NCBI GenBank assembly: GCA_041649175.1
Contig: JBAZNR010000001.1
Location: 158,934-222,933 of the forward strand
Source of the DNA: Candidatus Omnitrophota bacterium
GTDB lineage: Bacteria > Omnitrophota > Gorgyraeia > Zapsychrales > JBAZNR01
DNA: 64,000 bases
Direction: 5' to 3'
Shown here: positions 27,828-52,931 of the stretch, one piece after another
How the letters are laid out: the number at the start of each line of letters is the position of its first letter
How positions within the stretch are numbered: position 1 is the stretch's first letter
The notes under the pieces: generated by a model
Told to the model about the DNA's origin: nothing
Database searches by the model: none
What the model saw: the letters and a program-made list of their open reading frames with translations, nothing else
Program-made: the position numbers and the translations under genes

Positions 27828-28421
27828 CTAAAAAACTTTGAACAAATTTCCTTCGATGAGCCGCTCTTCAATGCGATTTAACAAACGCTTGGACGTCTTA
27901 GAAATATATTCTAACTCTTTACTGATAGAGTTGATCGTCTTTGAAGTTTCTGTCAGTGAAACAGCCGTATCGCCAAAAGATTCCGCCAAGTCTTGAACAT
28001 CTAAAGGGTCTTCGCCTAAGATCGGAGTGGAGAGATCAACGCTGGATGTCGCTTCATCAGTGCTCATATCAATCACTTTCCCGCCTAAAAGCCCTTCGGT
28101 CTTGATCGCAACGCGAGAACTTTTCTCCAATTGAGGCTTGTAACGCTTAAAGACATTAAGTGTCACCTGAACTCCTCGCCCTTGGATCTTTTCACTTAAG
28201 AAATCGATTTTCCAAACCGTTCCAACATTAACCCCTGATAAACGAATAGGAGCTCCGACGGATAAGCCACCCACTTCCCTAAAAAGGACCGTAATGGGAA
28301 AACGAGGCTGCGTAAAACCTTTTTCATTGCTGATGGCCCAGATCACCACAAAGATCAAAAAGATCCCTATGAAGAAAAATATCCCGGCATAAAATCTTTT
28401 TACAAAATCACGTTTATCCAT
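27828..28421 (-). CDS. mlaD: MlaD-like MCE-domain protein
   Basis: N-terminal TM then MCE domain 'ITVLFREVGGLSVGAPIRLSGVNVGTV'. Confidence 0.75.
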   Translation of the reverse strand: MDKRDFVKRFYAGIFFFIGIFLIFVVIWAISNEKGFTQPRFPITVLFREVGGLSVGAPIRLSGVNVGTVWKIDFLSEKIQGRGVQVTLNVFKRYKPQLEKSSRVAIKTEGLLGGKVIDMSTDEATSSVDLSTPILGEDPLDVQDLAESFGDTAVSLTETSKTINSISKELEYISKTSKRLLNRIEERLIEGNLFKVF

Positions 28422-28435
28422 TTAAGCCCTCCTGG

Positions 28436-29152
28436 TCAACTAAAGAATTTTCGCACGAACGGATCGGTTGAAGTTTCAAAATCATGTTTTGTTCCCACCA
28501 GCCAAAGACGCCCTTCATGAATTAAAGCCAGCCGGTCGGCAATACGAAACGAATTAATGATATCGTGCGAGGTGATCACGGTTGTTGCGTTAAGTTTTCT
28601 GCTTAAATCCAAAATAAGTTGAGAGATATCCTGACTGCGAATAGGGTCAAGCCCGGACGTCGGCTCGTCACAAAAAAGAATTTTTGAGTTAAGGATAACA
28701 CATCGGGCCAAAGCCGCTCTTTTTTTCATCCCGCCGCTTAACTCAACCGGATATTTTTCTTGGGCGTCTTCTAGCCCGACCAGCTTAAGTGTTTCCATAA
28801 CCCTGCTTCGGATTTCTTCTTCGCTTAACTCGGTATGTTCTTCCAAAGGGAAAGCAACGTTCTCAAAAATCGTCATAAAATCATATAGGGCCCCCTCTTG
28901 GAACAAATATCCGATCTCTTTGCGCACCTTAAGCAACTCTCGCTCGGAAAGCTGCGTAATGTCCGTTGCGTTGATCTCAACACTGCCTCGGTCGGGCCGG
29001 CGCAATCCAACGAGGTGTTGTAAAAAAACACTTTTCCCCGCCCCGCTTTCTCCTAAAATGACCAAGATCTCTCCCTCGCGAATTTCAAGGTCAATATCGC
29101 TTAAAATCGCTTCGCCGTTGATCTCTTTAGATAGACCCCGGATCCGGATCAA
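28436..29152 (-). CDS. mlaF: MlaF-like ABC transporter ATP-binding protein
   Basis: Walker A 'GESGAGKS', signature 'LSGGMKKRAALAR', Walker B 'LFCDEPTSGLD'. Confidence 0.85.
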   Translation of the reverse strand: MIRIRGLSKEINGEAILSDIDLEIREGEILVILGESGAGKSVFLQHLVGLRRPDRGSVEINATDITQLSERELLKVRKEIGYLFQEGALYDFMTIFENVAFPLEEHTELSEEEIRSRVMETLKLVGLEDAQEKYPVELSGGMKKRAALARCVILNSKILFCDEPTSGLDPIRSQDISQLILDLSRKLNATTVITSHDIINSFRIADRLALIHEGRLWLVGTKHDFETSTDPFVRKFFS

Positions 29153-29487
29153 TGCATATCCTTTTTTTCAAAAAATCTGAATTTATTCCTGCCGAATTTT
29201 GTATACAAACGGTTATATGGACGAACGTCGATCTTTTCGGCAAAAAATTCTGTTCCGCGGTATTCGCCGAGCTTATTCATTTCGGAATCCGTCAAAACCT
29301 CAACCTCATCGGTCGGAAACCATAACCCGTTCTCAAAATCAATGGGTTGGCCGTCTTTGATCCAGTCCGCTTCAGCCGATGGCGTATAAAATCCTTTTAG
29401 CTGAACCGAGGCGCCGCCGCAACCGGAAAAAATAGCTGCCGCCGCCAAAAGAATAAAAAAAATACTTTTCTCACCTGCCCGTTTCAC
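29149..29487 (-). CDS. small lipoprotein of unknown function inserted between mlaE and mlaF
   Basis: 'AAAAIFSGCGG' lipobox; 4-nt overlap with mlaF. Confidence 0.4.
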   Translation of the reverse strand: MKRAGEKSIFFILLAAAAIFSGCGGASVQLKGFYTPSAEADWIKDGQPIDFENGLWFPTDEVEVLTDSEMNKLGEYRGTEFFAEKIDVRPYNRLYTKFGRNKFRFFEKKDMH

Positions 29488-29515
29488 GCAAGCCTCCTTT
29501 GTAGGAACGTAAATA

Positions 29516-30283
29516 TTACCAAAGTGTTAAAATAATTTTTGTCAAGAATGCATTAGATAAAACCACCAAAATATAAGAAAAGGCAACGGCCTTGGTCGTA
29601 TATTTTCCTACACCCATAGAACCGCCCTTTGTGCTAAAACCTTGGTAGCAACAAATCCATCCGATCAGGATAGCAAAAAAGAATGTCTTCACAAACCCAC
29701 TAAAAAAATCAACATATCCGATGGCATCAATGGTACGATTGATATAAAAAGATCCCGGAATATTGGCTTCAAAGATCCCGACAAAATATCCTCCGGCAAT
29801 ACCAATGACTTCCGATAGGACAACAAGGATCGGCAGCACCAAAAAACAAGCGATCATTCGCGGAACAACTAAAAACTCGATCGGATCAACGCCTAAGGTG
29901 CGCGTTGCCAAAAGCTGGTCATTAACGCTCATGGTTCCCAGTTCAGCGGTGATGCGCGCTCCTGTTTTCCCCGAGAAAATGATCGCGCCAAAAACCGGGC
30001 TTAGCTCGCGCACTAAAGAAAGAGCCACTAATTGCGCCACATATTCCTTGGCGCCAAACCGATCCAGCATCATATAGCCCTGTATTGCCAAGACAGCGCC
30101 CGTCGCAAACGAAGTCAACGCAATAATGACGATCGACTGGATGCCTTGTTCGTAGATCTGCTTTAAAACCTCTCCTAAGCGAATTTTTCCTCTAAAAATA
30201 TTCCGCAAAACATCACCCAGAAAAAGCAACGCATCGCCTAGCCCGCAGATAAAACCAACGATATAATCAAGAATATAGCGCAT
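29516..30283 (-). CDS. mlaE: MlaE-like ABC transporter permease
   Basis: Five TM permease matching the MlaE/YrbE family pattern. Confidence 0.8.
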   Translation of the reverse strand: MRYILDYIVGFICGLGDALLFLGDVLRNIFRGKIRLGEVLKQIYEQGIQSIVIIALTSFATGAVLAIQGYMMLDRFGAKEYVAQLVALSLVRELSPVFGAIIFSGKTGARITAELGTMSVNDQLLATRTLGVDPIEFLVVPRMIACFLVLPILVVLSEVIGIAGGYFVGIFEANIPGSFYINRTIDAIGYVDFFSGFVKTFFFAILIGWICCYQGFSTKGGSMGVGKYTTKAVAFSYILVVLSNAFLTKIILTLW

Positions 30284-30844: not shown

Positions 30845-31828
30845 TTACGGCGAAGCTGTTTCGGCGGTTTTCTTGATCAGTTCTTTGACCGGAGACTTGG
30901 TCGCCGCATAAACAATGCCGCCAAAAAGCCCCACAATGACCATGAATAAAAACGTCATTAAGCTAATGCTCACCGCTATTCCGGAACTGACACCAACCTT
31001 AGCCAATAAATACGCCGCCCCCGCTTCGCGCACGCCTAATCCACCTATCGATGGAAGAGTGGTGATCACGCAAATAATGGGTGTAAAAATAATGAAATAG
31101 ATCAAAAGAATGTCTTGGTGTAAAGCTTTTCCCAGAAAGAACGAAACGATCGCGGCTAAAACTTGCGCGAATCCCGACAAGGCCACAACCTTATAAAGCG
31201 CGGTTCGTTTATCTTTCAACAAAGCGATATCATAATGAAGATCCATCAAATTTTTCTGGATCTTAGGTAGCCGGCTGAAGATCCGGCATCCAAAAGAATA
31301 TATTTTCTCGTTAAATAAAACTGTCCCGACAAATACCGATACCGCCGCCATGGCAAAAATAGTAAGCGACAATGACCTGTCATCGATCAAATGCTGGCCG
31401 ATCATAAAAGAAACAATGGCGACCACAGCCATGCCGGCAAAACCGCTTAAACGATCCAGCAAAACTGATGCCACGACTTTGGCTTTCTCGTTACAATGTA
31501 CGCATAGGCCGATCGTCTTGATAACATCGCCACCGATAGCGCTCGGTAAAAATAAATTTCCAAAAAGGCCTATAAAGAAATAACGGAAAATATTTGTCAA
31601 AGAAACTTTAATATCCAAAGCCCTGATCAAAACCATCCACCGCACCAAAAGGACAAAATTGATCACAGCGAAGACCGCTCCGGCGCAAAGAATATACGTC
31701 AGGTCGGCTGTTTTAAATATTTCCCAAGTCGCAGAAATATCAATTTTTCGAAAGAGATAGATAAGCAAAGCGGCGCTTAAGCCAACACGCACCAAAAGTC
31801 CGAAGATATCTTTAAGTTTCTGTTTCAT
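30845..31828 (-). CDS. UPF0104 / YbhN-family flippase-like polytopic membrane protein
   Basis: 'LRWMVLIRAL…IGLFGNLFLPSAIGGDVIKT' family signature. Confidence 0.6.
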   Translation of the reverse strand: MKQKLKDIFGLLVRVGLSAALLIYLFRKIDISATWEIFKTADLTYILCAGAVFAVINFVLLVRWMVLIRALDIKVSLTNIFRYFFIGLFGNLFLPSAIGGDVIKTIGLCVHCNEKAKVVASVLLDRLSGFAGMAVVAIVSFMIGQHLIDDRSLSLTIFAMAAVSVFVGTVLFNEKIYSFGCRIFSRLPKIQKNLMDLHYDIALLKDKRTALYKVVALSGFAQVLAAIVSFFLGKALHQDILLIYFIIFTPIICVITTLPSIGGLGVREAGAAYLLAKVGVSSGIAVSISLMTFLFMVIVGLFGGIVYAATKSPVKELIKKTAETASP

Positions 31829-34123: not shown

Positions 34124-34639
34124 TCATTTTTCCGCAGGAAAAACGGTGATCTTGTCCCCGGTGATCTTCGCGTTTGGAACAATGATCCGCTTGCCATCCG
34201 ATGTCACAATGATCGTATTGAATATTTGGATCTCCTCAACAACTCCCAAAGCACCACCCGCTTCGACCGTACTGCCCACATGAAATGGCTGAAAAATGAT
34301 CAGCATAACTCCCGCAGCAAAGTTTGACAAAGAACCTTGCAAGGCCAAGCCAACCGCCAAGCCGGCGGCACCAAGAACCGCGATAAACGATGTTGTCTCA
34401 ACACCCAGTTTATTTAAGGCGGCAATAACGGCAAATGCCAGGATAATAAAGTACACCATGTCCTTAGCAAAGGTAACGAGTGTTCTATTGATCTTTGAGC
34501 GCGTCATGGATTTATCAACTATCTTAGATACGATCTGGGCCGCCCATTTTCCCAAAATGAAGATAACGACCGCCGCCAGCAAATTAATGCCATATTGAAT
34601 CAAATAACCGTAGATCTTATCCCAATTTTCTTGCATCAA
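34124..34639 (-). CDS. small MscS-family channel-like protein
   Basis: 'ALQGSLSNFAAGVMLIIFQPFHVGSTVE…GVVEEIQIFNTIIVTSDGKRIIVPN'. Confidence 0.55.
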   Translation of the reverse strand: MMQENWDKIYGYLIQYGINLLAAVVIFILGKWAAQIVSKIVDKSMTRSKINRTLVTFAKDMVYFIILAFAVIAALNKLGVETTSFIAVLGAAGLAVGLALQGSLSNFAAGVMLIIFQPFHVGSTVEAGGALGVVEEIQIFNTIIVTSDGKRIIVPNAKITGDKITVFPAEK

Positions 34640-36963
34640 TTCTCCTCCTCATTATTTTTATCAATAAAAAACCGATTATACGCTTGCAAACCCAAGTAAT
34701 ATTCGCACACAGGTTTCAAATCCCGATTAATAGGATAACTTTTAAGCAATAGCTCTACTCGGGCATGTTTATAATCTATCGGCTTCATATACTTCGTATT
34801 AACAACACTTTGAATGTCCTCCCGATATTCCAAAGGAAAAGCAGAAAGAATTTGTTGGTATCTTCTTTCATTTTTATTGAACGGCGCATTAGACGCTAAG
34901 CAAAAAGATCCATAGATCTTAATGTGATCAAAGACAGAGAATAAAGTTCCCAAGACCACGCGATATTCATTCATCCACAGCAAAAGAACACCGCCCGGCG
35001 CAAGGCGGTCTTTGATCAACTGCAAAAATTCCTGCGAATAAACATTATTGCTGTACGCAGTCGTTGTCCGGATAAGATTAATGAGAATAAGGTCATATTT
35101 TTCATCTGTCCTTAACAAAAATCTTCTTCCGTCATCAATGACCAGATGAATGCGCGGATCAGACAGCATCCTATCGAAGAAAGGTATTTTTATCAAATTC
35201 CGGATAAGCGCGCGATGGATCTCAACGACCGTGATCTTTTTGGCCTCAATACTTTTTCTAATTGCTTCGGTAATAGACCCCGTTCCATAACCAATGACGA
35301 GGATATTATCCATACGGGGCGCGAAACTAGCCGCTTCCATAGCTTCATAAAAAAACATATGGCTCGGATATCCTCCCTCGGAAGAACCATTGATATAATT
35401 TGCAATATATTTCCCCTGCTGCGCGGTCACCACCACCGCTCCCACATCTTCTTCGATCAAGACAGCCGAGGTGTTCGCGGACAAAGGATGCATTAATTCA
35501 TAAAGCTGAGTTTTCTTAGGAAAGAAGATGAAAAGAATGGTCAGAAGGATCAGCAGGCCTGATTTTTGTGCAAGGCGCATTTGCCAATTTGCGGAAGTTT
35601 TTATCCAAAATCCTAAAAGAATGCCGATACAGCAAAAGATGATCAAAGTTTGTTCCGTGCCCAAATACGCTAAAAGCAAAAACCCCGTAACAAGCCCGCC
35701 TAAAAGATTGCCGATCGTGTTAAAGAAATAGATGGTCCCGATCGTCTTGCCTTCTTTATTTTTCTCCGATAAACCCAAAAGAGAGATAAGAGGAAAGCTT
35801 GCCCCCATCAAAATCGTTGGAACTAGCACAAAAACGATCGGCCATAAGAAAACATCAATGAGAGAATACAAAAACCAAAAAAATGTTACCGGCCTAAGAA
35901 GGCTTTCCTGAAATGCCGCGATGGTCGGTAAAAAAGGATGCAGGTCATGCGCGAATGAGATCGTCGTCGCCCAGCGAAAATGGGTATTTTTTGTCAGATA
36001 AAAATACCCGATAAAAACGACCATAACAAATAAAGCGATAAAAAACTGCAGAAGAAAAAAAAGGCTGCGCTTGTCCGCACTTTTATGTTTATTTAAATGC
36101 CGGTTCATCCATAAACTTCCCAAAGCAATACCTAAAAGATAAACAGCCAGTACCGTTGAGAATGTATACGCAGACGCCTTAAGCGGGATCTTGATGACGC
36201 GAAACCAAATGATCTCATATCCGATCGCCAGAAATCCCGTAATAAATACCAATAAATACGCCATTTTTCCGAATAGAAAATCACTGCCTTGATCATCATG
36301 AGCTTGAGGCAGCTCTGCCGCGCGAACAGGCATAGACCTGGCAAGAAAGATCAACAAGGCCAAAATGCCGTTGATCGTAACGGCAACATAGATAGCGGTA
36401 TCCAAGCCAAAGAAAGAAATGATCACATAGCTCGCGCATAAAGCTCCAAAAGCCGCTCCGATCGTATTGATAAAATACAAGTGGCTGACCGTCTTAAAGA
36501 AATCCCGGACAAAGCTATTGAATATTTTTGTTAAAAGCGGAAGCGTCATTCCCATCAAAAACGTCGGGAGCGACAAAAACAAGAACATGTACGCAAACGA
36601 AAGCCAGTAATCGCTTCCGGCCGTGTGGCGGCCGAGAAAATCTAGGAAAGGAATGCTTAAAACCCCAAAACAGCCGATCAGTATCTCGATGATAAAATAA
36701 AAAGTGATCTTGTCTTTGATGCGCTCAGCGAGCACTCCGCCTAAAAGCGCTCCGCATCCTAATCCAAACATATAAACACTCACGATCAAAGCGGAAGAGA
36801 TCTCTCCAACCCCATAATAAAGCGTTAAAAGTCTTTGCCAAACCACCTGATAGATCAGTCCGGCAAATCCGGAGAAGAAAAAGACAAAAGAGAGCAATGA
36901 GCTGATATGGCGAGAATTCTGAAGCGAACTTGAAAGCGGATTTTTCTTAAAGAAGAAATTCAT
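34636..36963 (-). CDS. fusion of MFS-like polytopic membrane domain and C-terminal spermidine/spermine synthase-like domain
   Basis: About 500 aa with 12 or more TM, then 'ILVIGYGTGSITEAIRKS…VVEIHRAL…' resembling the aminopropyltransferase Rossmann fold. Confidence 0.55.
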   Translation of the reverse strand: MNFFFKKNPLSSSLQNSRHISSLLSFVFFFSGFAGLIYQVVWQRLLTLYYGVGEISSALIVSVYMFGLGCGALLGGVLAERIKDKITFYFIIEILIGCFGVLSIPFLDFLGRHTAGSDYWLSFAYMFLFLSLPTFLMGMTLPLLTKIFNSFVRDFFKTVSHLYFINTIGAAFGALCASYVIISFFGLDTAIYVAVTINGILALLIFLARSMPVRAAELPQAHDDQGSDFLFGKMAYLLVFITGFLAIGYEIIWFRVIKIPLKASAYTFSTVLAVYLLGIALGSLWMNRHLNKHKSADKRSLFFLLQFFIALFVMVVFIGYFYLTKNTHFRWATTISFAHDLHPFLPTIAAFQESLLRPVTFFWFLYSLIDVFLWPIVFVLVPTILMGASFPLISLLGLSEKNKEGKTIGTIYFFNTIGNLLGGLVTGFLLLAYLGTEQTLIIFCCIGILLGFWIKTSANWQMRLAQKSGLLILLTILFIFFPKKTQLYELMHPLSANTSAVLIEEDVGAVVVTAQQGKYIANYINGSSEGGYPSHMFFYEAMEAASFAPRMDNILVIGYGTGSITEAIRKSIEAKKITVVEIHRALIRNLIKIPFFDRMLSDPRIHLVIDDGRRFLLRTDEKYDLILINLIRTTTAYSNNVYSQEFLQLIKDRLAPGGVLLLWMNEYRVVLGTLFSVFDHIKIYGSFCLASNAPFNKNERRYQQILSAFPLEYREDIQSVVNTKYMKPIDYKHARVELLLKSYPINRDLKPVCEYYLGLQAYNRFFIDKNNEEEN

Positions 36964-44128: not shown

Positions 44129-45115
44129 TTAATTCTGTATCAACTCAATAAGCTTAGGATAAACCACTGTAGTTTTTTGGTAAGGTTGTTCCGGGTCAAT
44201 GAGGTCATGCAAAATACCTAAATTCTTATCAAACTGAAAGTGTGTTATTTTAACGCTGCTGTGTCGACGCCATTCTTTAATAACTCCATCGATCGTCTTC
44301 TCATTGACCGCACCATCCAAAGCGCTTGTAACAACTACAATGGCCCGAGTCTTTGGCGCCACGCTCCTGGCTTTTTTCATAACTGCCCAGCCAAGACACA
44401 TGATCTGAGCAACCCCTCTGGTCGAAAATCCGAAATAAGAGGACGTCGGCCCCGTGAGCGCTGTCTTTCCTTTCTTGTCCCACCACTCGAACTTATTGGG
44501 CCAAATGTATAAGAGGTTGATGGTCGGTTTAAACAAACCTGTCGGCAACCCCTTCCACCCCCAGAAAGGCGCGATGATAACAGCCTTATCAACATCGCTT
44601 CTATTTTGCGCGACCCAACCGGCCATGTTCGCGCCCATGGAAAAACCAACGATCGTGACATGTTTGCCCAGCCCTTGGGCAATATCCACGGATTCATCAC
44701 ATAATATGGCCAATTCCAACGCAGTCAGCTGGGCGAGGTCATTGGTCATCCGGTCCTTAAGGCCATGGTGCGGGACCCGGGGGATCAGAACATTATATCC
44801 CTTTTCATAAAAGATCTTTCCCAGCGCTTCAAATTGCCGGGGGCTATTGGTGTTCCCGTGAAAGAATACGATTGTCTCACGCGTTTCTTCCCCATGTGCC
44901 AGAAAAATAAGGCGCCCATCCGGGGAAACATCTTCCCCATCAAGAGCGCGTAAATGATCAATGCGCCTAACGCTTTCCTGATAGCTGAGAGATGGATTAG
45001 CTTTTGAAACGAGATGGCGCGTACGGACAGGTTTTAAAAAAAGAAAGCAAGCGCAGAGCAAGATTGCCAATAAAACAGTTCCCAGAAACTTAATGAAGAA
45101 AAGCTGTAACATCAA
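44129..45115 (-). CDS. alpha/beta-hydrolase (esterase/lipase-like) with N-terminal TM
   Basis: 'GFSMGANMAGW' GxSxG nucleophile elbow. Confidence 0.65.
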   Translation of the reverse strand: MMLQLFFIKFLGTVLLAILLCACFLFLKPVRTRHLVSKANPSLSYQESVRRIDHLRALDGEDVSPDGRLIFLAHGEETRETIVFFHGNTNSPRQFEALGKIFYEKGYNVLIPRVPHHGLKDRMTNDLAQLTALELAILCDESVDIAQGLGKHVTIVGFSMGANMAGWVAQNRSDVDKAVIIAPFWGWKGLPTGLFKPTINLLYIWPNKFEWWDKKGKTALTGPTSSYFGFSTRGVAQIMCLGWAVMKKARSVAPKTRAIVVVTSALDGAVNEKTIDGVIKEWRRHSSVKITHFQFDKNLGILHDLIDPEQPYQKTTVVYPKLIELIQN

Positions 45116-45121
45116 TGGCCC

Positions 45122-45526
45122 CTATGGAGTAGCCTGCGCATGAGTGTCGACCTTACCTTGCTTCAAGTCTTCTTTAGTTTTCTCAGCCAGTAAGCCATAC
45201 TTTTTTCGGATCTTCTCCAAATTCTCATCCGAGAGTTTTTCAATATCCATCATTTCGTTATGAGCTCCTTTGGTAGCTCGGATGATCTCATCAAGCTTGA
45301 GTTGAATCGCAATGGTGTGGCGATTTTGACTATTTTGAATGATAAAAAGCATGATAATAGAAATGACTGCTGCCAAAGTACTGATGATGAGCTGCCAGGT
45401 ATTATTAAAATGGAGTGCCGGTCCGAGCAGGCCCCAAACTAAAATAATAATAAATGCTAAAAAACACGCGAACGGTTGCGCGGCTTTATTGGAAAGCCAT
45501 TTTGAGAATACTGAAAAATATTCCAT
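45122..45526 (-). CDS. 'low-affinity iron permease' family (PF04120-like) small two-TM protein
   Basis: 'TWQLIISTLAAVISIIMLFIIQNSQNRHTIAIQLKLDEIIRATKGAHN…DIEKLSDENLEKIRKKY' matches the family consensus. Confidence 0.5.
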   Translation of the reverse strand: MEYFSVFSKWLSNKAAQPFACFLAFIIILVWGLLGPALHFNNTWQLIISTLAAVISIIMLFIIQNSQNRHTIAIQLKLDEIIRATKGAHNEMMDIEKLSDENLEKIRKKYGLLAEKTKEDLKQGKVDTHAQATP

Positions 45527-45550
45527 TGTTTCTCATCCTCTTTATTTTTC

Positions 45551-47719
45551 CTAACTCAAAGTTTCCTTAAATCTATCCAAACATATTTTCATAAATTGAT
45601 CCGGAAAAGCGTCAAACATCCTTTCCGCATGGCCGCCATCTTCCATGATGGTCAAAAGCTTAGGCTCCTTTGCCTTTGCAAATAAAAGCTGACTATGACT
45701 CAGCTTGACGAGCCAGTCTTTCTCACCATGAAGGAAGAGAACCGGTGTCGGTGATATCTTATCAACAACGTCGCGAGGCCGGATCTTTTGTAAAGCCAGG
45801 CTGCCTGACCTGACACCCTTCCCTTTCCCTTTGATCCCAAAATTAAGCATGAGATCTCTCCACATATCTTTTTCCCAAAAATGAAAATCGATCTTTCCTA
45901 AATCTGACGGGGAACTGACAGCGATCACACTATCAATGTTCTGATGGAAACTTGCCTCAACCAATGCGATCGCAGCACCCAGTGAAAACCCGATCACGCC
46001 GATTTTTTCATACTTGTTTTCTTTCGCATAAGCCGTGATCGCCCGAAGATCTTTTTGTTCAAGCGCTGTCCACGTAAACACATCGCTGCTCTTGCCATGC
46101 CCGCGAAAATCGAACACGATCACATCGTATTCTTTGCTAAATGCGTCAGCCATCCCTTTAAATAAAACCGTATCCTTATTGTTGTAAAATCCGGGCGCGA
46201 TAATAATAACTTTGAAAAACCCTCCTTTAATATGAAGAAAGGAGATGCGTTTCCCATCCTCTGTCATCACGTAACGATCAGGCTCGCTCTCCTGCGCAGG
46301 AGAAGGCGTCAGTTCAGCAGTTTTCGCCGTTCCATTAAGCGGAGTTGCGACTAAGTCGCCGGCCGCGCTCTTAGAAGAAAGGTCGTCGCTCTTTACCGTC
46401 GTATCATTAATTTTCTTGGGTTCCGTTTTCTTAAAATTTCCTTCAAAGATCGACATGATTATGGATTGAACATAATTTTTGTAAATATCCAACTCTGCTC
46501 TCATGCGCCAAAAGAAAAGATACTGCGAACTATTTCTCTTGCCCACGGAAATTGTTTTTCTTGATCTCGCATCTTCATAAATGGCTAACATGCGTTTGGC
46601 GGAGGCACTGATCGTGTATTTTTCTGCCGTCGTTCTTGCGGCCTGCTTTATGGTTTGTGTTTCTTCGGGAGAACGATTTAAAACCCACAGCAGTGCCTCA
46701 GAAAAGCTGGGTTGATCCATCTCCATAAGCAATCGTCCGTTACTGCCGTCTTTGACCATGTCCCGCGCTCCGGGCGCATCCAGCGCTACCACCGGAGCAC
46801 CTGATGCCATGGCTTCAATCAAGACGATCCCTTGAGTTTCGCTTAATGAGGCAAAGGCAAAAACATCCATAGCAAAATAAGCATCAACCAAATTCTGATA
46901 CTGCAAAACCCCGACCAAATGCACTCTTTCTTGAAGACCGGCTTTTTGAAAGGTGCCTTTGATCATTTTCTCTGATGAGCCTTTGCCAACGATCAGGGCA
47001 TGGACTCTTGTATCTTTCTTTAACGCTTCAACCATGCACTGGATCAGAAAGTCCAAATTTTTTTCCGACGCCAGACGCCCCGCATGTCCGATCACTAAGG
47101 CATCAAGAGGGATGTGGTTCTGCTCGCGAAACCCTTTTCTATCGCCTTTTGAGAAACGCTTCAAATCAACCCCGGTCGGAACGATCTCCATGGGTGTTTT
47201 AACACCTCTTTTAAGCAAGATTTCCTGCACGCTTTCGCAGGGCACGATCAGCCGGTCCACAAAATTGGCATATCCGGCAGACAGCTTGACCATAAATCGC
47301 TTGACTCCCTCGTTCTGAACCGGCAAATCCTGTGTGTACTCCTCAAACATCGTATGATACGTAAAGACCAGCGGTATAGCGTGCTGCCGGCTGAGGCGTA
47401 GAGCAAAATCTCCCATAAAAAACGGGCAATGGCTGTGGACAATATCCGGTGAAAATTCTTTCATAAGCCGCGTTAAGAGCATGGAAAACGGAAAATTAAC
47501 AGAGAAAATCGTCCGGTTGAATTTTTGGAAAGCGGGAAGCCGGATAACACCCGGCTCCTCTACGGGAGCCCCGTTAAAGGTTGGAGTCACGATCAAAACC
47601 TCATGCCCCAAAGTTTTAAATTCTTCGCTAAAAGAATAAACCGATTGCTCTAATCCTCCGACGATCGGGAAATAGGTATTTGTCATCATGAGAATTCTCA
47701 TTTTTTCTCCTTCGCACAA
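45551..47719 (-). CDS. fusion of N-terminal GT4 glycosyltransferase and C-terminal alpha/beta-hydrolase
   Basis: 'MRILMMTNTYFPIVGGLEQSV…' GT-B/GT4 and EX7E-like region; C-terminal 'GVIGFSLGAAIAL' nucleophile elbow. Confidence 0.6.
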   Translation of the reverse strand: MCEGEKMRILMMTNTYFPIVGGLEQSVYSFSEEFKTLGHEVLIVTPTFNGAPVEEPGVIRLPAFQKFNRTIFSVNFPFSMLLTRLMKEFSPDIVHSHCPFFMGDFALRLSRQHAIPLVFTYHTMFEEYTQDLPVQNEGVKRFMVKLSAGYANFVDRLIVPCESVQEILLKRGVKTPMEIVPTGVDLKRFSKGDRKGFREQNHIPLDALVIGHAGRLASEKNLDFLIQCMVEALKKDTRVHALIVGKGSSEKMIKGTFQKAGLQERVHLVGVLQYQNLVDAYFAMDVFAFASLSETQGIVLIEAMASGAPVVALDAPGARDMVKDGSNGRLLMEMDQPSFSEALLWVLNRSPEETQTIKQAARTTAEKYTISASAKRMLAIYEDARSRKTISVGKRNSSQYLFFWRMRAELDIYKNYVQSIIMSIFEGNFKKTEPKKINDTTVKSDDLSSKSAAGDLVATPLNGTAKTAELTPSPAQESEPDRYVMTEDGKRISFLHIKGGFFKVIIIAPGFYNNKDTVLFKGMADAFSKEYDVIVFDFRGHGKSSDVFTWTALEQKDLRAITAYAKENKYEKIGVIGFSLGAAIALVEASFHQNIDSVIAVSSPSDLGKIDFHFWEKDMWRDLMLNFGIKGKGKGVRSGSLALQKIRPRDVVDKISPTPVLFLHGEKDWLVKLSHSQLLFAKAKEPKLLTIMEDGGHAERMFDAFPDQFMKICLDRFKETLS

Positions 47720-49197
47720 GCGCAGACCAATCCATCCATTGAGGATTGGGTCTTTAATTCTATAAGCGCTTTTCTAGCCGCTATACATATCGCGTCGTAA
47801 GAGTTTTTCGCCCCCATGGCTAAGCCTTCTTTTTCCAGGTCTTTAGGCAGAAGCGGCTTACCAAACCTCACCCTGATCGGATGGCGCTTAGGATACGTTG
47901 CCGTACTAGACCAAGCCTCATGAGCTCCTTCGATCGCCACAGGCACAAGCTTTGCCCCTGTCTCCTTGGCCAAGACGCCGAATCCTTTTTTAAATTTCCC
48001 GATTTTGCCAGTAGCGCTGCGCAACCCTTCAGGAAAGAAACACAAGCCCTTTCCATGTTCTAACACAAGAAAACAACTACGTAGCGCTTCTAAGAAATGC
48101 GTTGAGAAATCAAAAGGAATAAATCTTCCCATCTTGACGAGATTCCATAAAATACTAGACTTTTCAAACGGCCTAAAAAAATACGGCCCAAAAACAAAAT
48201 AAAAAAGCTGAAACACTGGTCGACGCGGCAAACAAGCGGCAATGGCTGGCCCATCAAGAAAACTCGTATGGTTGCCATACAGAATATAAGCTCCTTCTTC
48301 AGGTACGTTCTTTGCGCCTTCTTCTTTAATACTGAAAAACAACTTAAAAATCAAACAATCGATAGCTGTCAAAACAAATCGAAACAACCAGGCAAAGTAA
48401 CCTGTGCTCAATTCGATCATTTCCAAATTTTCTTTTTTCGGCGGTACGCGTAAATTTTCTTTCCAATAGTCTGGCCCTAAAGGTATCTTTTGATTCTTCG
48501 AGGAAATGCCTTTGGCTTCCTTCAGCGCCTCCGCTATCCCTAAAATAAGATCCTTGACGCTAAAGGCTCTCGAGATCGCCTCTTCATTTATATCAGTTCC
48601 AAGAGCTGCCTCAAGGCACGAAGCAAGCTCTAGCCTGCCTAATGAATCTATGCCAATGTCCAGCTCTAATGAATTCTCAAGGATTATTGATCCGGTGATA
48701 CCGCTTTGTTCCTTCAAACATTTTAAAACTTTTATGCCGATCTCAGACTCTATCAAAAGAAGATCTTCTGGTAAAAGTTCTTTTGATACCGGAAGAGAGC
48801 CTTCTATGCCCTTAATCACCCTGGATTCATATATCTTCTTGACTGCGCTTCTTTCTAACTTACCGAAAAGCGTATGGGGTAAATCCTCAAGCGTAATCGT
48901 AAAACCTTTAAGCCTTTTATGCAAAGGGAGTGATTGCGAGGCATTGTCAAATCTCTCCTTAATGACAGAGCGTAGATTCACTTCACCAAATTCCCTAAAA
49001 TCATCAAGATCTGGCTGAATAATAGCCCAAAGAACTTTCGTCTTCCCTGCGCCTTCCATTCCAGAGACTGTAAAAACGCACATCTCTTTGACCGGAGCAA
49101 CTTTTGTATAAGCTTGCTCAATCTCTTCCGGATAAATTTTTTCCCCCGATTTCAATATGATAAAATTTTTAATTCTGGATGTCAGAGATGTGGTCAT
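47698..49197 (-). CDS. three-part protein: AMP-binding C-terminal subdomain, ACP (PP-binding) domain, PlsC-type lysophospholipid acyltransferase
   Basis: 'KSGEKIYPEEIEQAYTKVAPVKEMCVFTV' (AMP-binding_C-like); 'LDIGIDSLGRLEL' phosphopantetheine Ser motif; 'GNHTSFLDGP' HX4D acyltransferase motif. Confidence 0.5.
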   Translation of the reverse strand: MTTSLTSRIKNFIILKSGEKIYPEEIEQAYTKVAPVKEMCVFTVSGMEGAGKTKVLWAIIQPDLDDFREFGEVNLRSVIKERFDNASQSLPLHKRLKGFTITLEDLPHTLFGKLERSAVKKIYESRVIKGIEGSLPVSKELLPEDLLLIESEIGIKVLKCLKEQSGITGSIILENSLELDIGIDSLGRLELASCLEAALGTDINEEAISRAFSVKDLILGIAEALKEAKGISSKNQKIPLGPDYWKENLRVPPKKENLEMIELSTGYFAWLFRFVLTAIDCLIFKLFFSIKEEGAKNVPEEGAYILYGNHTSFLDGPAIAACLPRRPVFQLFYFVFGPYFFRPFEKSSILWNLVKMGRFIPFDFSTHFLEALRSCFLVLEHGKGLCFFPEGLRSATGKIGKFKKGFGVLAKETGAKLVPVAIEGAHEAWSSTATYPKRHPIRVRFGKPLLPKDLEKEGLAMGAKNSYDAICIAARKALIELKTQSSMDGLVCACAKEKK

Positions 49198-49201
49198 TTA
49201 T

Positions 49202-51934
49202 CTACCTCGCTCCTGTCGGCAAGCAGGATTTCAATTCAAAAGAATTCGTTCCTGGTGTAATTCTAACGTCATTAAAACCTTGCAATTGAATATCTATGGG
49301 TGGCTCGCTCTCAAACCACTGTCCTTGCCATTCGACAAGGATATTTTGCCCTTGAGGTTTTATGGAAATTTGAATATTTCCAAAACTTGTTGGCGCGGGA
49401 CCAAAAGAGATCGTTTGTTTTTTTTCTAACCAGATACACGGGATCCCGGAACATAAGATCAATCGCTCACCTTCTTCGCGCACAAAACAATTTCTGATCA
49501 TCAAAACCCATTCCGCCGCGGCCCACACATGCTGTCCGTCCCCCATACATCCGCCACCGGTACGCGGATGGACCGACTCAGGCCATTGCCCCGTTGGTGA
49601 AGCCAGCTTGGCCACCGCAGTCATCAAATCAAAATACCTTGGATCTCCCGCACGCAAAAGCACTTGAGCTAAATGCAGCGTAAGGTACGGATTGATCCCA
49701 GAATGAGTCATATCATGAAAGAATCCGCCATGAACTAAACAATTTTTCATTAAGAAATCAGCTGTGTCTAAGATCTTTGGGTCATTGGGTTCAAAAACAC
49801 GAAGCGGATAACTCGCCACCAAAGAGCCGATAGCCCCTGTATCCAAGCGCCGATAGGGAGAAGCTGGTATGGTAGGCTTTTTAAAACGCTCTTCCACTTT
49901 TTTTAAACTTTGTTCAATGCTGGCAAGTAATGCCTGCGATTCCTTTTCAAAATAAACAGCCTTCTCCTGATCTTTATAAGCCGCGCATAAAAAGGCTGAC
50001 GCTTTTAATCCTGCAACAGCCCAAAAGTCATCCCAATAATAAAAATCATTTGGCCCCAAATGCTCGGCGCTAAATCCCGATGGCAGTAAGCCCGCATGAG
50101 GGGATTGCAAGTTACTCGGCAAACGCTTTTTGCAGATCCACTGGCTCGCTTTATGGATGGATTCTTTCCATTCGTTAGGAGGGACATTTCCTGTCATCTC
50201 GCAATACTGACGCATGATCCACAAGGCCTCTCCATTAGAATCCCATTCCCCTTCTTGGGAAAGAAAATAACCTTGTTTTGTCTGGCGGGAACGAAAACAA
50301 TCTAGAGCCCTGCGGACACGCTCATTTAGCCCAACACATAACAAGGCATGCAATATGAACGCAGCATCACGAAACCAAAACCGTCGATAAATATAAGGAC
50401 CCGGATAAACTTCCCTGGGGGAATGCAGGACCATCGCATGAATCGCAGCTTCATAAAGAAATTGAAAATGCTCATCAGGAATTTTTAATGAACACACGCC
50501 TTGAAGGCTTTTTGCCCACTGTGCTTTAGCAATGTCTTGATAGTCTCCATAAGATTTTTCTTCATTTTTATTTTTCGTTAAAGGTACTGAAATAGTAATT
50601 TCTTCTTTTTGTCCGGATTCTAATATGAAAATAGCAGCAGAGCTAGCCATGCCGACTTTGCATGCCACTTCTTTTTCATTTTCTTCCGACGAAAACAACG
50701 GATCTTCCTGTTTTTTCTTCGTCGGTGGTATAGGAAAGGTCAAGCGGCTATATACATCGCCGCGATGATAATCAGAAAACATATACTGATCGGCGGGCTT
50801 ATCAAAATAGACGGAATGTTCGCGGTTAACTTGCCAGCCTAACGAGCCTTCCAGAAGAACAATACTATGTATAAAACTCACGCCTTCCGGGTTATACGGC
50901 CGCAAGGAGACAATTAATCGCGCATTGATAAAAACCTTTGCTGTGACTTTGATCTGGCAAAGAGGCGCTTGAGCTGATCCAATAACTTGCGTTCTTAATT
51001 GAAGGCTTAATTGATCTGAACTTGATGCTGTCGTCACATAAAAATCGTTATCTAGGCCCATCTTTTGCGATACGCTGTCACATTGCGACGGGATCAATGG
51101 ATCCCCTTTTTGGGGGATTATCCAGACATCAAGTGACCATCCATCATAATAGGGAGTCACAAGGCCGCGCGGATCCACCAAAGGGAAATCGATGCTATCG
51201 GGAACACCTAAGGCGGTCCAATTTCGGTGGGTAAGATTAATTTGGGTTAGCGAAAAAGATCTTGGAATGAACGCCACGTTGTGAGGATCATACTGGCATC
51301 GTACCCAATAGGGCCAGATCCAATCAAGATTATGCTGGATCGCTAAACTATTAAGTAAACCACGCGCGTGCAAAACAACGCCTGAGCGTAACAACTCCGT
51401 GGGAGCTGCTACCTCGGAAGGCTGCGAAAAGTTTTGCAATTGGGAAAGAACTTTGATGGGATCTAAAAACCCTTGCTTGCGCGCGGCATCAGTGACTAGA
51501 AATCTCCACGGAACCCATTTCCACCACACAAAATAAGCCCCCTTTTTTAAAAGAGACCTGAAAACCCACCACTTAAAGCAAATGAAAGTAAGCAATCCTG
51601 TAAACACCGCAGCGATAACCAAAGCCAAGAAAACAGAACTTGGCCACACGCTTAGAACATATCGGTTTATTAAAACATTAATTTCTAAGGCTAGGAAATT
51701 AATCAATATATACCGACGAATTTCAACATATGACGGCTGGTTACACTGAAATATCCAATATTTATTAAGCAAATACGCGGCAATACCCGCACACGTAAAA
51801 GAAACTGCTTTGGACAGACTGAAAGATAGAAAATGAATTAAGAAATAGTAAATACCAAAATCTACCGCCCCAACAAAAACCCCTGCGATAAGAAACCGGA
51901 CAATTTCTTTCTTAACATTCAGATTAGTTTTCAA
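49202..51934 (-). CDS. GtrA-like N-terminal membrane domain fused to a large (about 780 aa) six-hairpin glycosidase-like domain (GH15/GH63/GDE_C-like)
   Basis: N-terminal 4-TM 'RFLIAGVFVGAVDFGIYYFL…KYWIFQ' GtrA pattern; C-terminal alpha/alpha-toroid-like repeats. Hydrolase family not resolved. Confidence 0.45.
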   Translation of the reverse strand: MKTNLNVKKEIVRFLIAGVFVGAVDFGIYYFLIHFLSFSLSKAVSFTCAGIAAYLLNKYWIFQCNQPSYVEIRRYILINFLALEINVLINRYVLSVWPSSVFLALVIAAVFTGLLTFICFKWWVFRSLLKKGAYFVWWKWVPWRFLVTDAARKQGFLDPIKVLSQLQNFSQPSEVAAPTELLRSGVVLHARGLLNSLAIQHNLDWIWPYWVRCQYDPHNVAFIPRSFSLTQINLTHRNWTALGVPDSIDFPLVDPRGLVTPYYDGWSLDVWIIPQKGDPLIPSQCDSVSQKMGLDNDFYVTTASSSDQLSLQLRTQVIGSAQAPLCQIKVTAKVFINARLIVSLRPYNPEGVSFIHSIVLLEGSLGWQVNREHSVYFDKPADQYMFSDYHRGDVYSRLTFPIPPTKKKQEDPLFSSEENEKEVACKVGMASSAAIFILESGQKEEITISVPLTKNKNEEKSYGDYQDIAKAQWAKSLQGVCSLKIPDEHFQFLYEAAIHAMVLHSPREVYPGPYIYRRFWFRDAAFILHALLCVGLNERVRRALDCFRSRQTKQGYFLSQEGEWDSNGEALWIMRQYCEMTGNVPPNEWKESIHKASQWICKKRLPSNLQSPHAGLLPSGFSAEHLGPNDFYYWDDFWAVAGLKASAFLCAAYKDQEKAVYFEKESQALLASIEQSLKKVEERFKKPTIPASPYRRLDTGAIGSLVASYPLRVFEPNDPKILDTADFLMKNCLVHGGFFHDMTHSGINPYLTLHLAQVLLRAGDPRYFDLMTAVAKLASPTGQWPESVHPRTGGGCMGDGQHVWAAAEWVLMIRNCFVREEGERLILCSGIPCIWLEKKQTISFGPAPTSFGNIQISIKPQGQNILVEWQGQWFESEPPIDIQLQGFNDVRITPGTNSFELKSCLPTGAR

Positions 51935-52103: not shown

Positions 52104-52223
52104 CTATGTGGACATGATCTTCCGGCCGGCTTTACGATTCTTTACTTTTCCGCGTCCGCCGGGCCTCTTAGAAGCCCGCTTTTTTGCTGCCGTCATTCTT
52201 CCCCCTCGACTTTTCTTCGCCAT
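52104..52223 (-). CDS. candidate 39-aa highly basic protein (MAKKSRGGRMTAAKKRASKRPGGRGKVKNRKAGRKIMST). Not in the ORF track.
   Basis: Strong SD 'AAGGAGGT' 9 nt upstream of ATG (rc of 52224-52245); K/R content about 40%. Confidence 0.3.
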   Translation of the reverse strand: MAKKSRGGRMTAAKKRASKRPGGRGKVKNRKAGRKIMST

Positions 52224-52271: not shown

Positions 52272-52931
52272 TTATTGTGTCGTAGTAGTGGTGGTCGTTG
52301 TGGTGGTTGTCGTGACAGTCGGTGAATACAGCGTAATATAACGCGCCAGCTGTTTCCCATCTTTTGCCACATATTCAACTTTAACAACATCGCCGGGCTT
52401 GATCATTAATTCCACGGGTTGTTTACTTGGACTGCGCATCACAATGATAGTCTTGGGGTCAAAAACAAAATAAGAGATCCTGCTTTTTTCTTCTTGGCCG
52501 ATCCTTACTCTTTCTTCCACCTCAAGCGTTCCAGCCGTAACATCAATAGCCTTTAACTCACCAAAGGCTTGCTGATACTCGGATGCCGGCAAAGGATTGA
52601 CAATGACTTTCTGTATAACTTTATCCTCTTGTCCGTCCGCCACATCAATAGTGACATATTGACCTGCCCGTAAGTCACCGACGTTGAGAAACTTTACATC
52701 CGCAGAATCAGTAACTCGCGTTTCATTTTGAGTAATTCTATACGCGATCGTTTTAGTGCCCTGGGGTGTCTCTCGATTAATTTCTAATTTACCTTGTTGA
52801 ATATCTACCCATCCGATTTCTCCTGATACCTGATGCACACCCACAGCCTCTTCAGCGCGCACAGATATGCCGCTGAATAATGCAACGGCCGCAATAACAC
52901 TAAATACTTTCAGATAATTTATATTCATCAA
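52272..52931 (-). CDS. secreted protein with C-terminal poly-Thr (T12) tail
   Basis: Signal peptide 'VIAAVALFSGISVRA'; C-terminus TVTTTTTTTTTTTTQ encoded by mixed ACN codons. Confidence 0.5.
   Translation of the reverse strand: MMNINYLKVFSVIAAVALFSGISVRAEEAVGVHQVSGEIGWVDIQQGKLEINRETPQGTKTIAYRITQNETRVTDSADVKFLNVGDLRAGQYVTIDVADGQEDKVIQKVIVNPLPASEYQQAFGELKAIDVTAGTLEVEERVRIGQEEKSRISYFVFDPKTIIVMRSPSKQPVELMIKPGDVVKVEYVAKDGKQLARYITLYSPTVTTTTTTTTTTTTQ

Follow-up and report, generated by a model that had tools for sequence, protein, structure and literature searches.

A putative glycolipid operon built around an unmodelled glycosidase-fold family in Candidatus Omnitrophota

Which product would call for a membrane domain joined to a glycosidase-like protein, half of an adenylating enzyme joined to an acyl carrier and an acyltransferase, and a glycosyltransferase joined to an alpha/beta-hydrolase, all encoded side by side? 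Three such genes, here called g1, g2 and g3, lie on the minus strand of a 64,000-nucleotide stretch of contig JBAZNR010000001.1 from a Candidatus Omnitrophota bacterium (positions 158,934 to 222,933). This whole stretch is referred to as the window, and its own numbering is used throughout. Two smaller genes, g4 and g5, follow. A preliminary description of the window had proposed that these genes acylate and glycosylate, and possibly deacylate, a lipid carrier. On our preferred reading the cluster belongs among operons of the glycolipid biosynthesis or remodelling type, built round a glycosidase-fold family that has no domain model.

Architecture of the operon

An ORF check gave five open reading frames (ORFs) in the same direction at 44129-51934, all on the minus strand and with the coordinates listed for them, encoding 910, 499, 722, 134 and 328 aa (g1 to g5). 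These lengths (134-910 aa), together with orthologues at 70-87% identity, show that they are genuine genes and not chance ORFs. The three large genes are as tightly packed as had been stated: 4 nt separate the g1 stop codon from the g2 ATG, and the TGA of g2 and the ATG of g3 overlap as ATGA. Because of this overlap, the ATG at 47701 (M7 of the listed ORF) is most likely the start of g3, rather than the TTG at 47719. Gaps of 24 nt and 6 nt separate g3 from g4 and g4 from g5, respectively. Upstream of g1, the first gene is a 39-aa basic ORF at a distance of about 170 nt; downstream of g5, 334 nt pass before the next ORF. With junctions this tight and outside neighbours this distant, g1-g5 look like one transcription unit, and the genes are translationally coupled. 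Consensus promoter and terminator scans of the operon performed no better than on shuffled sequence and were not used.

The product of g1 (49202..51934; delimited by the ORF and its orthologues) consists of a GtrA-like membrane domain fused to a protein resembling glycoside hydrolase family 15 (GH15), 910 aa in total. A protein 100% identical to it is on record as 'GtrA family protein' from a Candidatus Omnitrophota metagenome-assembled genome (MAG), and orthologues at 69-77% identity fill more than 100 clusters. Residues 13-125 (51560..51898) match the GtrA/DPMS domain PF04138 (E 3.6e-13; 50.2 bits against a cut-off of 26.1). Hydrophobic segments cover residues 10-125, and the structure model has four transmembrane (TM) helices here (5-32, 38-61, 69-96 and 101-129). 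PF04138 is matched by 22 of 60 aligned family sequences, the remaining 38 being stand-alone forms without the GtrA domain. Since the N-terminus and the segment following TM4 are positively charged, the positive-inside rule predicts a cytoplasmic GH15-like domain, alongside the enzymes that depend on nucleoside diphosphate (NDP)-sugars and on acyl carrier protein (ACP). In archaeal dolichol-phosphate mannose synthase, a GtrA-type TM domain is joined to an N-terminal GT2 transferase. The g1 protein is similar in that a 4-TM domain of GtrA type is covalently joined to a putatively cytoplasmic sugar-active domain for a lipid-linked sugar, whereas its catalytic domain is GH15-like and C-terminal.

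Outside the GtrA domain, the 775 residues of g1 gave no Pfam match even at E 10 and no PDB match by phmmer. A first family profile reached GH15 entries at E 0.2-0.5 only, and the relation to GH15 required a broader profile of 30 family sequences and fold searches. The broader profile matched glucoamylase 1lf6 at E 0.007, aligned at the Y-x-x-W-x-RD motif, and also an archaeal debranching enzyme and a GH125 protein. Among 60 family members, 26 matched NCBIfam TIGR01577, a GH15-type oligosaccharide amylase (best 1.7e-7, 28 bits against a cut-off of 821), 4 matched the NCBIfam glucoamylase model, and 3 weakly matched the Pfam GH15 model PF00723 (best E 0.065). Such scores indicate distant homology and not GH15 membership.

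The AlphaFold model of g1, built from 60 homologues (pLDDT 78, pTM 0.76), predicts the GH15 architecture, in which an N-terminal beta-sandwich (residues 240-450; 50585..51217) precedes an (alpha/alpha)6 barrel (residues 462-817; 49484..50551). Together with the PF04138 match, this bears out the earlier description of g1 as GtrA plus a glycosidase-like domain. Cyclic beta-1,2-glucan synthase is among the structural matches. A C-terminal beta-sandwich follows at residues 818-901 (49232..49483; pLDDT mostly >90). Residues 136-235 (51230..51529) are an aromatic and basic region (WWKW..PWRF, AIQHNLDWIWPYW) that has many invariant columns in two family alignments, and the stand-alone homologues begin with the equivalent region. 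Its helices are of low confidence in the model, the stretch at about 140-215 being poorly predicted though very conserved, and it is probably associated with the membrane interface. The barrel carries the motifs YRRFWFRD(523), GEWDSNGEALW, FYYWD(635)DFW, YRRLD(698), QWPE(786) and GCMGD(799)G..HVWAAAEW. Residues D523, D635, D698, E786 and D799 do not vary among 30 members whose identity to g1 is only 25-52%. In what we take to be the motif order of GH15, YYWD(635)D stands at the WEE position and QWPE(786) at the position of the base, and the catalytic pair is probably an Asp acid and a Glu base. Compared with glucoamylase and glucodextranase (1lf6, 1ulv), the g1 protein is only 13-14% identical, has no Pfam GH15 match at threshold, has Asp where motif order places the catalytic-acid Glu, and adds the conserved N-terminal region, the C-terminal sandwich, a membrane anchor and linkage to a glycosyltransferase of family 4 (GT4). 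In our view, this protein of about 750 aa represents a family of the GH15/GH65 structural clan that is new and has no model, and it lies outside GH15 proper.

The g2 gene (47698..49197) encodes a truncated ElbD-like protein of 499 aa, in which a remnant of an adenylate-forming (ANL) enzyme is followed by an ACP and a PlsC domain; its orthologues are about 485 aa long and 70-87% identical. Residues 1-135 (48793..49197) extend from the A8 hinge (RIKNFIILKSGEKIYPEEIE) to the A10 motif FGKLER. In Pfam, this part matches AMP-binding_C_3 below threshold (17.5 against 20.8 bits). The whole of g2 aligns to the C-terminal 485 residues of paralogues of about 906 aa (901-916) with AMP-binding, ACP and PlsC domains, at 37-46% identity; these have a complete AMP-binding domain and match both AMP-binding_C and AMP-binding_C_3. 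NCBIfam acyl-CoA ligase models match the N-terminal part of g2 through their own C-terminal regions (E 7e-6 and weaker). A g2 structure model of moderate confidence (pLDDT 68) matched A-PCP didomains, ligase C-subdomains and PlsC, and Foldseek superposed the ligase C-subdomains at 3.5-4 Å over about 115 columns (for example 3cw9, 3.7 Å over 117 columns). From the paralogue alignment, the ligase models and the fold matches, the N-terminus of g2 is identified as an ANL C-terminal subdomain, in agreement with the domain order (AMP-binding C-subdomain, ACP with DSL, PlsC with HX4D) that the preliminary description had assigned.

The truncation is a shared feature. All 28 truncated orthologues start at the same point, the A8 hinge of adenylate-forming enzymes, which in the window falls only 4 nt past the g1 stop codon. 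The A10 lysine is retained in 21 of these 28, including the window copy, and in all four full-length paralogues; the other seven have H, R, Q, T, L, E or F. Because the lysine is lost in 7/28 yet kept in 4/4 full-length proteins, the AMP-binding remnant is probably catalytically dead. A motif search found no A3 motif or adenylation core anywhere in the 64-kb window. By tblastn, no stand-alone gene for an ANL N-domain was found in 83 related loci, where N-domains occur only within the full-length proteins of 901-916 aa; seven related loci have such a protein no more than 10 kb from the cluster. Lacking an adenylation core, g2 cannot activate a fatty acid itself, and its ACP must therefore be loaded by something else.

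Residues 150-222 of g2 (48532..48750) form the ACP, recognised by Pfam PP-binding (PF00550; E 2.5e-5, 24.9 against 20.8 bits) and by fold (A-PCP didomain 5msw, E 1.5e-7); its predicted phosphopantetheine site, Ser185 in DSLGR, is invariant in 28/28 orthologues. After a hydrophobic segment (266-290), residues 274-449 (47851..48378) form a PlsC-type acyltransferase (PF01553; E 1.2e-14, 54.6 against 23 bits). The motifs H310-x4-D315 and FPEG (388-391) are invariant in the same 28 sequences (H310, D315, E390). This domain matches PlsC in the PDB (5kym, 6.5e-10 by sequence and 5e-7 by fold), and in NCBIfam it most resembles the acyltransferase part of acyl-[ACP]--phospholipid O-acyltransferase (Aas; PRK08633, E 4e-21).

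In E. coli, Aas uses acyl-ACP to re-acylate lysophospholipid. Although its acyltransferase part is what the PlsC domain of g2 resembles most, g2 has its domains in the opposite order, carries its own ACP and lacks the adenylation core. ElbD of Myxococcus xanthus carries a FAR-like reductase, ACS, ACP and AGPAT on one polypeptide, and ElbD-like proteins share the acyl-activating, ACP and AGPAT/PlsC part (PMC9131029). The g2 paralogues of about 906 aa likewise join an acyl-activating domain, an ACP and AGPAT/PlsC, whereas g2 has neither the reductase nor the entire N-terminal adenylation subdomain and amounts to half an ACS, an ACP and an AGPAT. Fusions of FAAL with lysophospholipid acyltransferases are on record only as architectures without an explanation (PMC8460268). 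The exact g2 sequence is absent from the database matches (best 87% identity at 97% coverage), though these included g1 at 100%. At its C-terminus the window copy extends about 14 residues beyond the orthologues, and the source record may carry a different annotation for g2.

The g3 gene (45551..47701, from the likely ATG) encodes the GT4 and alpha/beta-hydrolase fusion, and both assignments of the preliminary description held. The GT4 domain (ORF residues 7-385; 46565..47701) has both GT-B halves, Glyco_transf_4 (PF13439; 6.5e-36, 124 bits) and Glycos_transf_1 (PF00534; 2.9e-32, 112 bits). The best of its 59 NCBIfam matches is alpha-monoglucosyl-diacylglycerol synthase (NF049988, 2.7e-42), and the GlcN_PG_synth model matches below its cut-off (5.7e-28). 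In the PDB, the domain matches MshA (1.2e-18) and PimA (6e-15). The hydrolase domain (ORF residues 504-703; 45611..46210) matches Abhydrolase_1 (PF00561; E 3.2e-18, 66.7 bits) and contains a GFSLG nucleophile motif. Its closest solved relatives are esterases (PDB 5g59 at 6e-13).

The domain calls for the two smaller genes were also upheld. The g4 gene (45122..45526) encodes a small PF04120 membrane protein (E 5e-39) whose two hydrophobic segments correspond to two TM segments. The g5 gene (44129..45115) encodes an alpha/beta-hydrolase, Abhydrolase_6 (PF12697; E 3.1e-9, 38.2 bits), with an N-terminal hydrophobic segment (1-33) that is a signal peptide or an anchor; it is faintly similar to monoacylglycerol lipases (E 2e-4).

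Conservation and variation across relatives

To follow the operon in relatives, g1 was searched against one genome per GTDB species, which gave 441 loci; the best 80 were analysed. Synteny was counted on the 59 species loci with at least 3.5 kb of downstream sequence. GT4 directly follows the GH15-like gene in 57 of these 59. The g2 gene stands between the two in 34/59, of which 33 have GtrA, and an alpha/beta-hydrolase is fused to GT4 or directly follows it in 17/59. Thus g1, g2 and g3 are co-inherited, as the synteny check called for by the preliminary description was to establish. The fusions, which it had called uncommon, are real, but they are the norm throughout a large Omnitrophota clade and not peculiar to this genome. 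The g4 and g5 genes, which it had placed in the pathway, recur in only 3/80 and 4/80 loci, respectively, and were rejected as members of the system.

All 17 loci with the hydrolase also carry g2 and GtrA. As the hydrolase occurs only where g2 is present, this co-occurrence fits a cycle of deacylation and re-acylation; the 17 loci are phylogenetically related and hence not independent observations. GtrA is sometimes a separate gene immediately upstream of the GH15-like gene and elsewhere fused to it, which argues that it is a true functional partner. Neither a GtrB-type GT2 nor a GT-C transferase, the usual partners of GtrA, was found in the operon or the scanned neighbours; the conserved partner here is GT4, instead of a GtrB-type GT2.

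The 750-aa family extends far beyond Omnitrophota. An exhaustive search of 1.84 billion representatives gave at least 472 clusters (at 50% identity) with E<=1e-30 and 1409 with E<=1e-10. Identity in the GH15-like protein is 50-77% among Omnitrophota, Planctomycetota, Gammaproteobacteria (Methylobacter and Thiobacillus MAGs), Nitrospinota and deltaproteobacterial MAGs. The stand-alone homologues, about 750 aa long (50-57% identity), come from Gammaproteobacteria, including the Thiobacillus and Methylobacter MAGs, and from Nitrospinota, deltaproteobacterial and Planctomycetota MAGs; each of them bears the annotation hypothetical and lacks a Pfam domain. A second subfamily (33-38% identity) likewise has no Pfam match. 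Across the family, for which no Pfam model exists, the annotations read only 'hypothetical' or 'GtrA family'.

Outside the Omnitrophota clade that has these fusions, the partners change. In five places of proteobacterial type the order is DedA/VTT, the 750-aa protein and GT4, and in 4/5 a fourth gene encodes a protein of about 800 aa that combines an EEP domain with a Phosphodiest domain of alkaline-phosphatase (AP) type. In these operons, start codons overlap stop codons, the 750-aa gene overlapping the DedA stop codon, and this version is only four genes long. In other Omnitrophota, GT4 is itself fused to the Phosphodiest and EEP module (about 1230 aa), and DUF2062 occupies the upstream slot. 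In one locus (L052, 9547-10023, plus strand), the DUF2062 protein in this slot also matches, below the cut-off, the NCBIfam model of the Brucella type IV effector BspA (E 5.7e-20). The Omnitrophota fusions are best described as lineage-specific versions of a multi-phylum core that comprises a membrane protein, the GH15-like protein and GT4.

Further lipid enzymes recur around this core. On a gammaproteobacterial metagenome contig (L086, 12981-15812, plus strand), a 943-aa protein with ACP, FAAL and PlsC domains directly follows the VTT/750-aa/GT4/AP-EEP operon; it has the same three activities as the 906-aa ACS-ACP-PlsC protein of Omnitrophota in a different domain order, which suggests independent recruitment. 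In L055 and L057 (about 10091-17700 in L057), the order is the 750-aa protein, VTT, GT4, GtrA (125 aa), a TreT-like GT4 (PF21269), an alpha/beta-hydrolase and a protein like phospholipase D (PLD)/cardiolipin synthase. This variant hints at a trehalose- or phosphatidyl-sugar-type product. Patatin-like lipoproteins, which lie upstream in about 15 loci, GH1 enzymes and DUF3108 proteins are frequent Omnitrophota neighbours. The recurrence of the patatin, PLD-like, Phosphodiest and EEP, and ACP-FAAL-PlsC proteins supports a lipid or glycolipid product.

We also considered a pathway like that of glycosylphosphatidylinositol (GPI) anchors, with GT4 as PIG-A, the AP domain as the ethanolamine-phosphate transferases, EEP as the C-terminal domain of PGAP2IP (PF23226) and the hydrolase as PGAP1. 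It was dropped because the PIGA model is not among the 17 Pfam families that match g3 (E<=0.01), and AP and EEP are absent from the window.

Candidate function and alternative explanations

Among known systems, the logic of the operon is closest to gpgSDF of Pseudomonas aeruginosa, for glucosamine (GlcN)-phosphatidylglycerol, and hexSDF of Clostridioides difficile, which combine a lipid GT4, a sugar-headgroup enzyme and a small multi-TM putative flippase (PMC12713373). The resemblance lies in a short operon with a cytoplasmic GT4, a second headgroup enzyme and a small multi-TM protein. In contrast to these systems, the headgroup enzyme here is GH15-like and not a sugar N-deacetylase, no deacetylase being present; the membrane protein is GtrA, DedA or DUF2062, not UPF0104; and acyl-carrier/acyltransferase and hydrolase modules are added, so that the cluster is not a member. 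For phosphatidylinositol mannosides in mycobacteria, the HX4D-type acyltransferase PatA acylates the glycolipid made by PimA, with acyl-CoA as donor. The cluster shares with PimA and PatA a GT4 similar to one acting on a membrane phospholipid (g3 against PimA, E 6e-15) and an HX4D acyltransferase, but those proteins have no ACP, glycosidase-like partner or fused hydrolase, and the identity to PimA is low. In Sinorhizobium, Agrobacterium and SAR11, membranes are remodelled under phosphate limitation by PlcP, a lipid phosphoesterase, and Agt, a GT4 that glycosylates the resulting diacylglycerol. The GT4 and phosphodiesterase/EEP fusions of the relatives recall this pairing, whereas PlcP is a metallophosphoesterase and not an AP-superfamily protein with EEP, that system has no GH15-like gene, flippase-like gene or ACP-acyltransferase, and the window carries an esterase where the phosphoesterase would be. 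The cluster thus falls outside gpgSDF/hexSDF, PimA/PatA and PlcP/Agt alike. As the preliminary description had supposed, no description of this combination turned up: the literature searched, itself incomplete (Omnitrophota lipids, GtrA/DedA/DUF2062, GH15/glycolipid, DedA/phosphate limitation), yielded none of the operon or of the 750-aa family, and the lipocone paper mentions none of GtrA, VTT, DUF2062 and GT4.

We put at even odds that the operon makes or edits a membrane-bound glycolipid, that is, a lipid-linked alpha-glycoside, at the cytoplasmic face of the inner membrane. Three lines of evidence point to a membrane lipid carrying an alpha-sugar. Three unrelated small multi-TM proteins, two of them tied to the translocation of lipid-linked sugars or polyprenyl-phosphate, alternate in one slot; GT4 is fused to lipid-type hydrolases; and ACP-dependent PlsC acyltransferases have been recruited repeatedly.

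In such a pathway, the GT4 of g3, a putative retaining enzyme nearest to lipid-acceptor monoglucosyl-diacylglycerol synthase, PimA and MshA, would transfer an alpha-hexose from an NDP-sugar to a membrane lipid. The g3 hydrolase would remove an acyl chain from that lipid or its precursor, and in other lineages the phosphodiesterase and EEP module would strip a phospho-headgroup instead. The g2 protein might then re-acylate the lyso-lipid, or acylate the sugar, with an acyl chain from its own ACP, which may be loaded in trans by the full-length paralogue of about 906 aa or by another acyl-ACP synthetase; the retained C-subdomain may be a structural or docking relic. The GtrA domain would hold the GH15-like domain of g1 at the membrane, bind the lipid tail and perhaps move the product across the membrane, roles that DedA/VTT or DUF2062 may take in other lineages. 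The GH15-like domain itself may work as an inverting enzyme, either an alpha-glycosidase or a transglycosylase, in which D635 would serve as the acid and E786 as the base; by its action the alpha-glycosyl headgroup would be trimmed, turned over or handed on. Its role could be hydrolytic editing or turnover, transglycosylation as in the GH15 dextran dextrinase, or phosphorolysis. Cyclic beta-1,2-glucan synthase is a precedent for pairing a synthase with a trimming domain of glycosidase fold.

The genomic context, namely the swaps of translocator-like proteins and the lipid enzymes, lends independent support to a lipid or glycolipid reading. Several points weigh against this proposal. Its chemical steps, among them the lipid carrier and the acylation and deacylation of the preliminary description, are put forward from family resemblance. 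The match of g3 to NF049988 (145.5 bits against a cut-off of 400) is a family resemblance only, and GT4 enzymes also use soluble and polyprenyl-linked acceptors. GtrA and DedA proteins are best known with polyprenyl-phosphate lipids and not with acylglycerol lipids. A search of the 64-kb window gave no loader for the g2 ACP. The least secure part is the role of the GH15-like enzyme. By sequence, its likeness to GH15 is weak (profile E 0.007), and motif order puts an Asp in place of the catalytic Glu. To our knowledge, the GH15 enzymes characterised so far work on soluble alpha-glucans, dextran or trehalose, and not on lipids. A synthase and a hydrolase that share a compartment and act on one bond look futile unless one edits or regulates the other.

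The main rival, itself unlikely in our estimate, is a pathway for a polyprenyl-phosphate-linked sugar or glycan, serving an envelope polysaccharide or a lipid carrier, in which GtrA, DedA or DUF2062 binds or flips an undecaprenyl-phosphate intermediate that GT4 extends and the GH15-like protein trims. By its name and scope, PF04138 covers the TM module found in polyprenyl-phosphate sugar systems and in dolichol-phosphate mannose synthase. Lipid-carrier glycans are substrates of many GT4 enzymes, and the PglJ, TuaC and exopolysaccharide (EPS) families are among the NCBIfam matches of g3; DedA proteins, moreover, have been described as polyprenyl-phosphate transporters (bioRxiv 10.1101/2022.02.03.479048). 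However, the recurring partners are of glycerolipid type (PlsC with ACP, patatin, PLD-like, esterase, EEP), and the conserved core of the clustered neighbourhoods contains no priming phosphoglycosyl transferase, GtrB-like GT2, Wzx/Wzy or GT-C. A Bac_transf gene (PF02397) occurs in one case, about 5 kb downstream in L085, with other genes between it and the operon.

The remaining explanations are less likely. It is quite improbable that g1 and g3 together make and break down a soluble alpha-glucoside (trehalose, a glucosyl compatible solute or a small alpha-glucan, for example), with the membrane proteins and the acyltransferase only loosely connected. GH15 holds glucoamylases, glucodextranases and dextran dextrinase, which are among the matches of the g1 family, and also trehalases; the GT4 matches of g3 include TreT, sucrose-phosphate synthase and glycogen synthase, and a TreT-like gene lies within the operon in L055 and L057. 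Yet in more than 100 protein clusters the GH15-like protein carries a 4-TM domain on the same chain and, where it stands alone, its gene overlaps the stop codon of a DedA gene, while GT4 is fused to a lipid-type hydrolase or a phosphodiesterase-EEP module and g2 sits between g1 and g3 with overlapping signals. Finally, that g2 is a functionless, decaying remnant and the three-gene unit a lineage accident is hardly credible: g2 lacks the whole adenylation core, its A10 lysine varies and its exact sequence is missing from database matches that hold g1 at 100%, but the start shared by 28/28 orthologues, the 70-87% identity across the clade, the invariant ACP serine, HX4D and FPEG, and the position kept between g1 and g3 in 33 species loci argue for purifying selection on it.

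A broader form of the membrane-glycolipid proposal is offered more tentatively, as a possibility to which we give somewhat less than even weight. The 750-aa protein may found a new family of the GH15/GH65 clan that acts on lipid-anchored alpha-glycosides at the cytoplasmic side of the membrane and forms the hub of an as yet undescribed multi-phylum (phospho)glycolipid pathway, together with a translocator-like protein (GtrA, DedA/VTT or DUF2062), GT4, a lipid hydrolase (esterase, or phosphodiesterase with EEP) and an ACP-dependent acyltransferase. The Omnitrophota acyltransferase would in that case keep its dead adenylation subdomain as a docking module for loading in trans.

Surroundings of the operon and wider meaning

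The remainder of the window holds ordinary chromosomal genes, such as those for MlaFED, peptide deformylase, thioredoxin, tRNAs, two-component systems and an ammonium transporter. The basic ORF upstream of g1 (52104-52223, minus strand; 39 aa, MAKKSRGGRMTAAKKRASKRPGGRGKVKNRKAGRKIMST) is extremely basic, is preceded by a strong AAGGAGG ribosome-binding site and is too short for the ORF list; it lies between g1 and a gene for a secreted protein. The latter (52272-52931, minus strand; 219 aa) has an N-terminus like a signal peptide and a C-terminal run of 11 threonines, and it matches no Pfam or NCBIfam family. Its relatives (39-70% identity) are found upstream of the g1 homologue in about 20/80 loci, at variable distance.

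Elsewhere, a stand-alone LPG_synthase_TM/UPF0104 membrane protein (30845-31828, minus strand; E 1.2e-36) shares its family with GpgF, which has been proposed as a glycolipid flippase in P. aeruginosa. Its gene lies between one for a YacP-like NYN protein and one for a lipoyl-synthase-like radical SAM protein, with MlaFED at 27828-30283. Five paralogous-looking proteins of 609-692 aa (2220-4298, 5143-6972, 8709-10766, 21507-23531 and 23531-25591, all minus strand) have dense TPR arrays in their C-terminal halves, and their N-terminal stretches of about 400 residues have no Pfam match. A 775-aa fusion (34636-36963, minus strand) joins an MFS transporter domain (24-321) to a spermidine/spermine-synthase-like domain (547-662).

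If the proposed pathway is real, a conserved and coupled operon found in many lineages would stand for a class of membrane lipid that lipidomics has yet to link to genes. It could bear on how the envelope is built and remodelled in uncultured, possibly host-dependent Omnitrophota, on what the DedA, GtrA and DUF2062 proteins carry, and on the use of ACP-tethered acyl chains outside fatty-acid synthesis.

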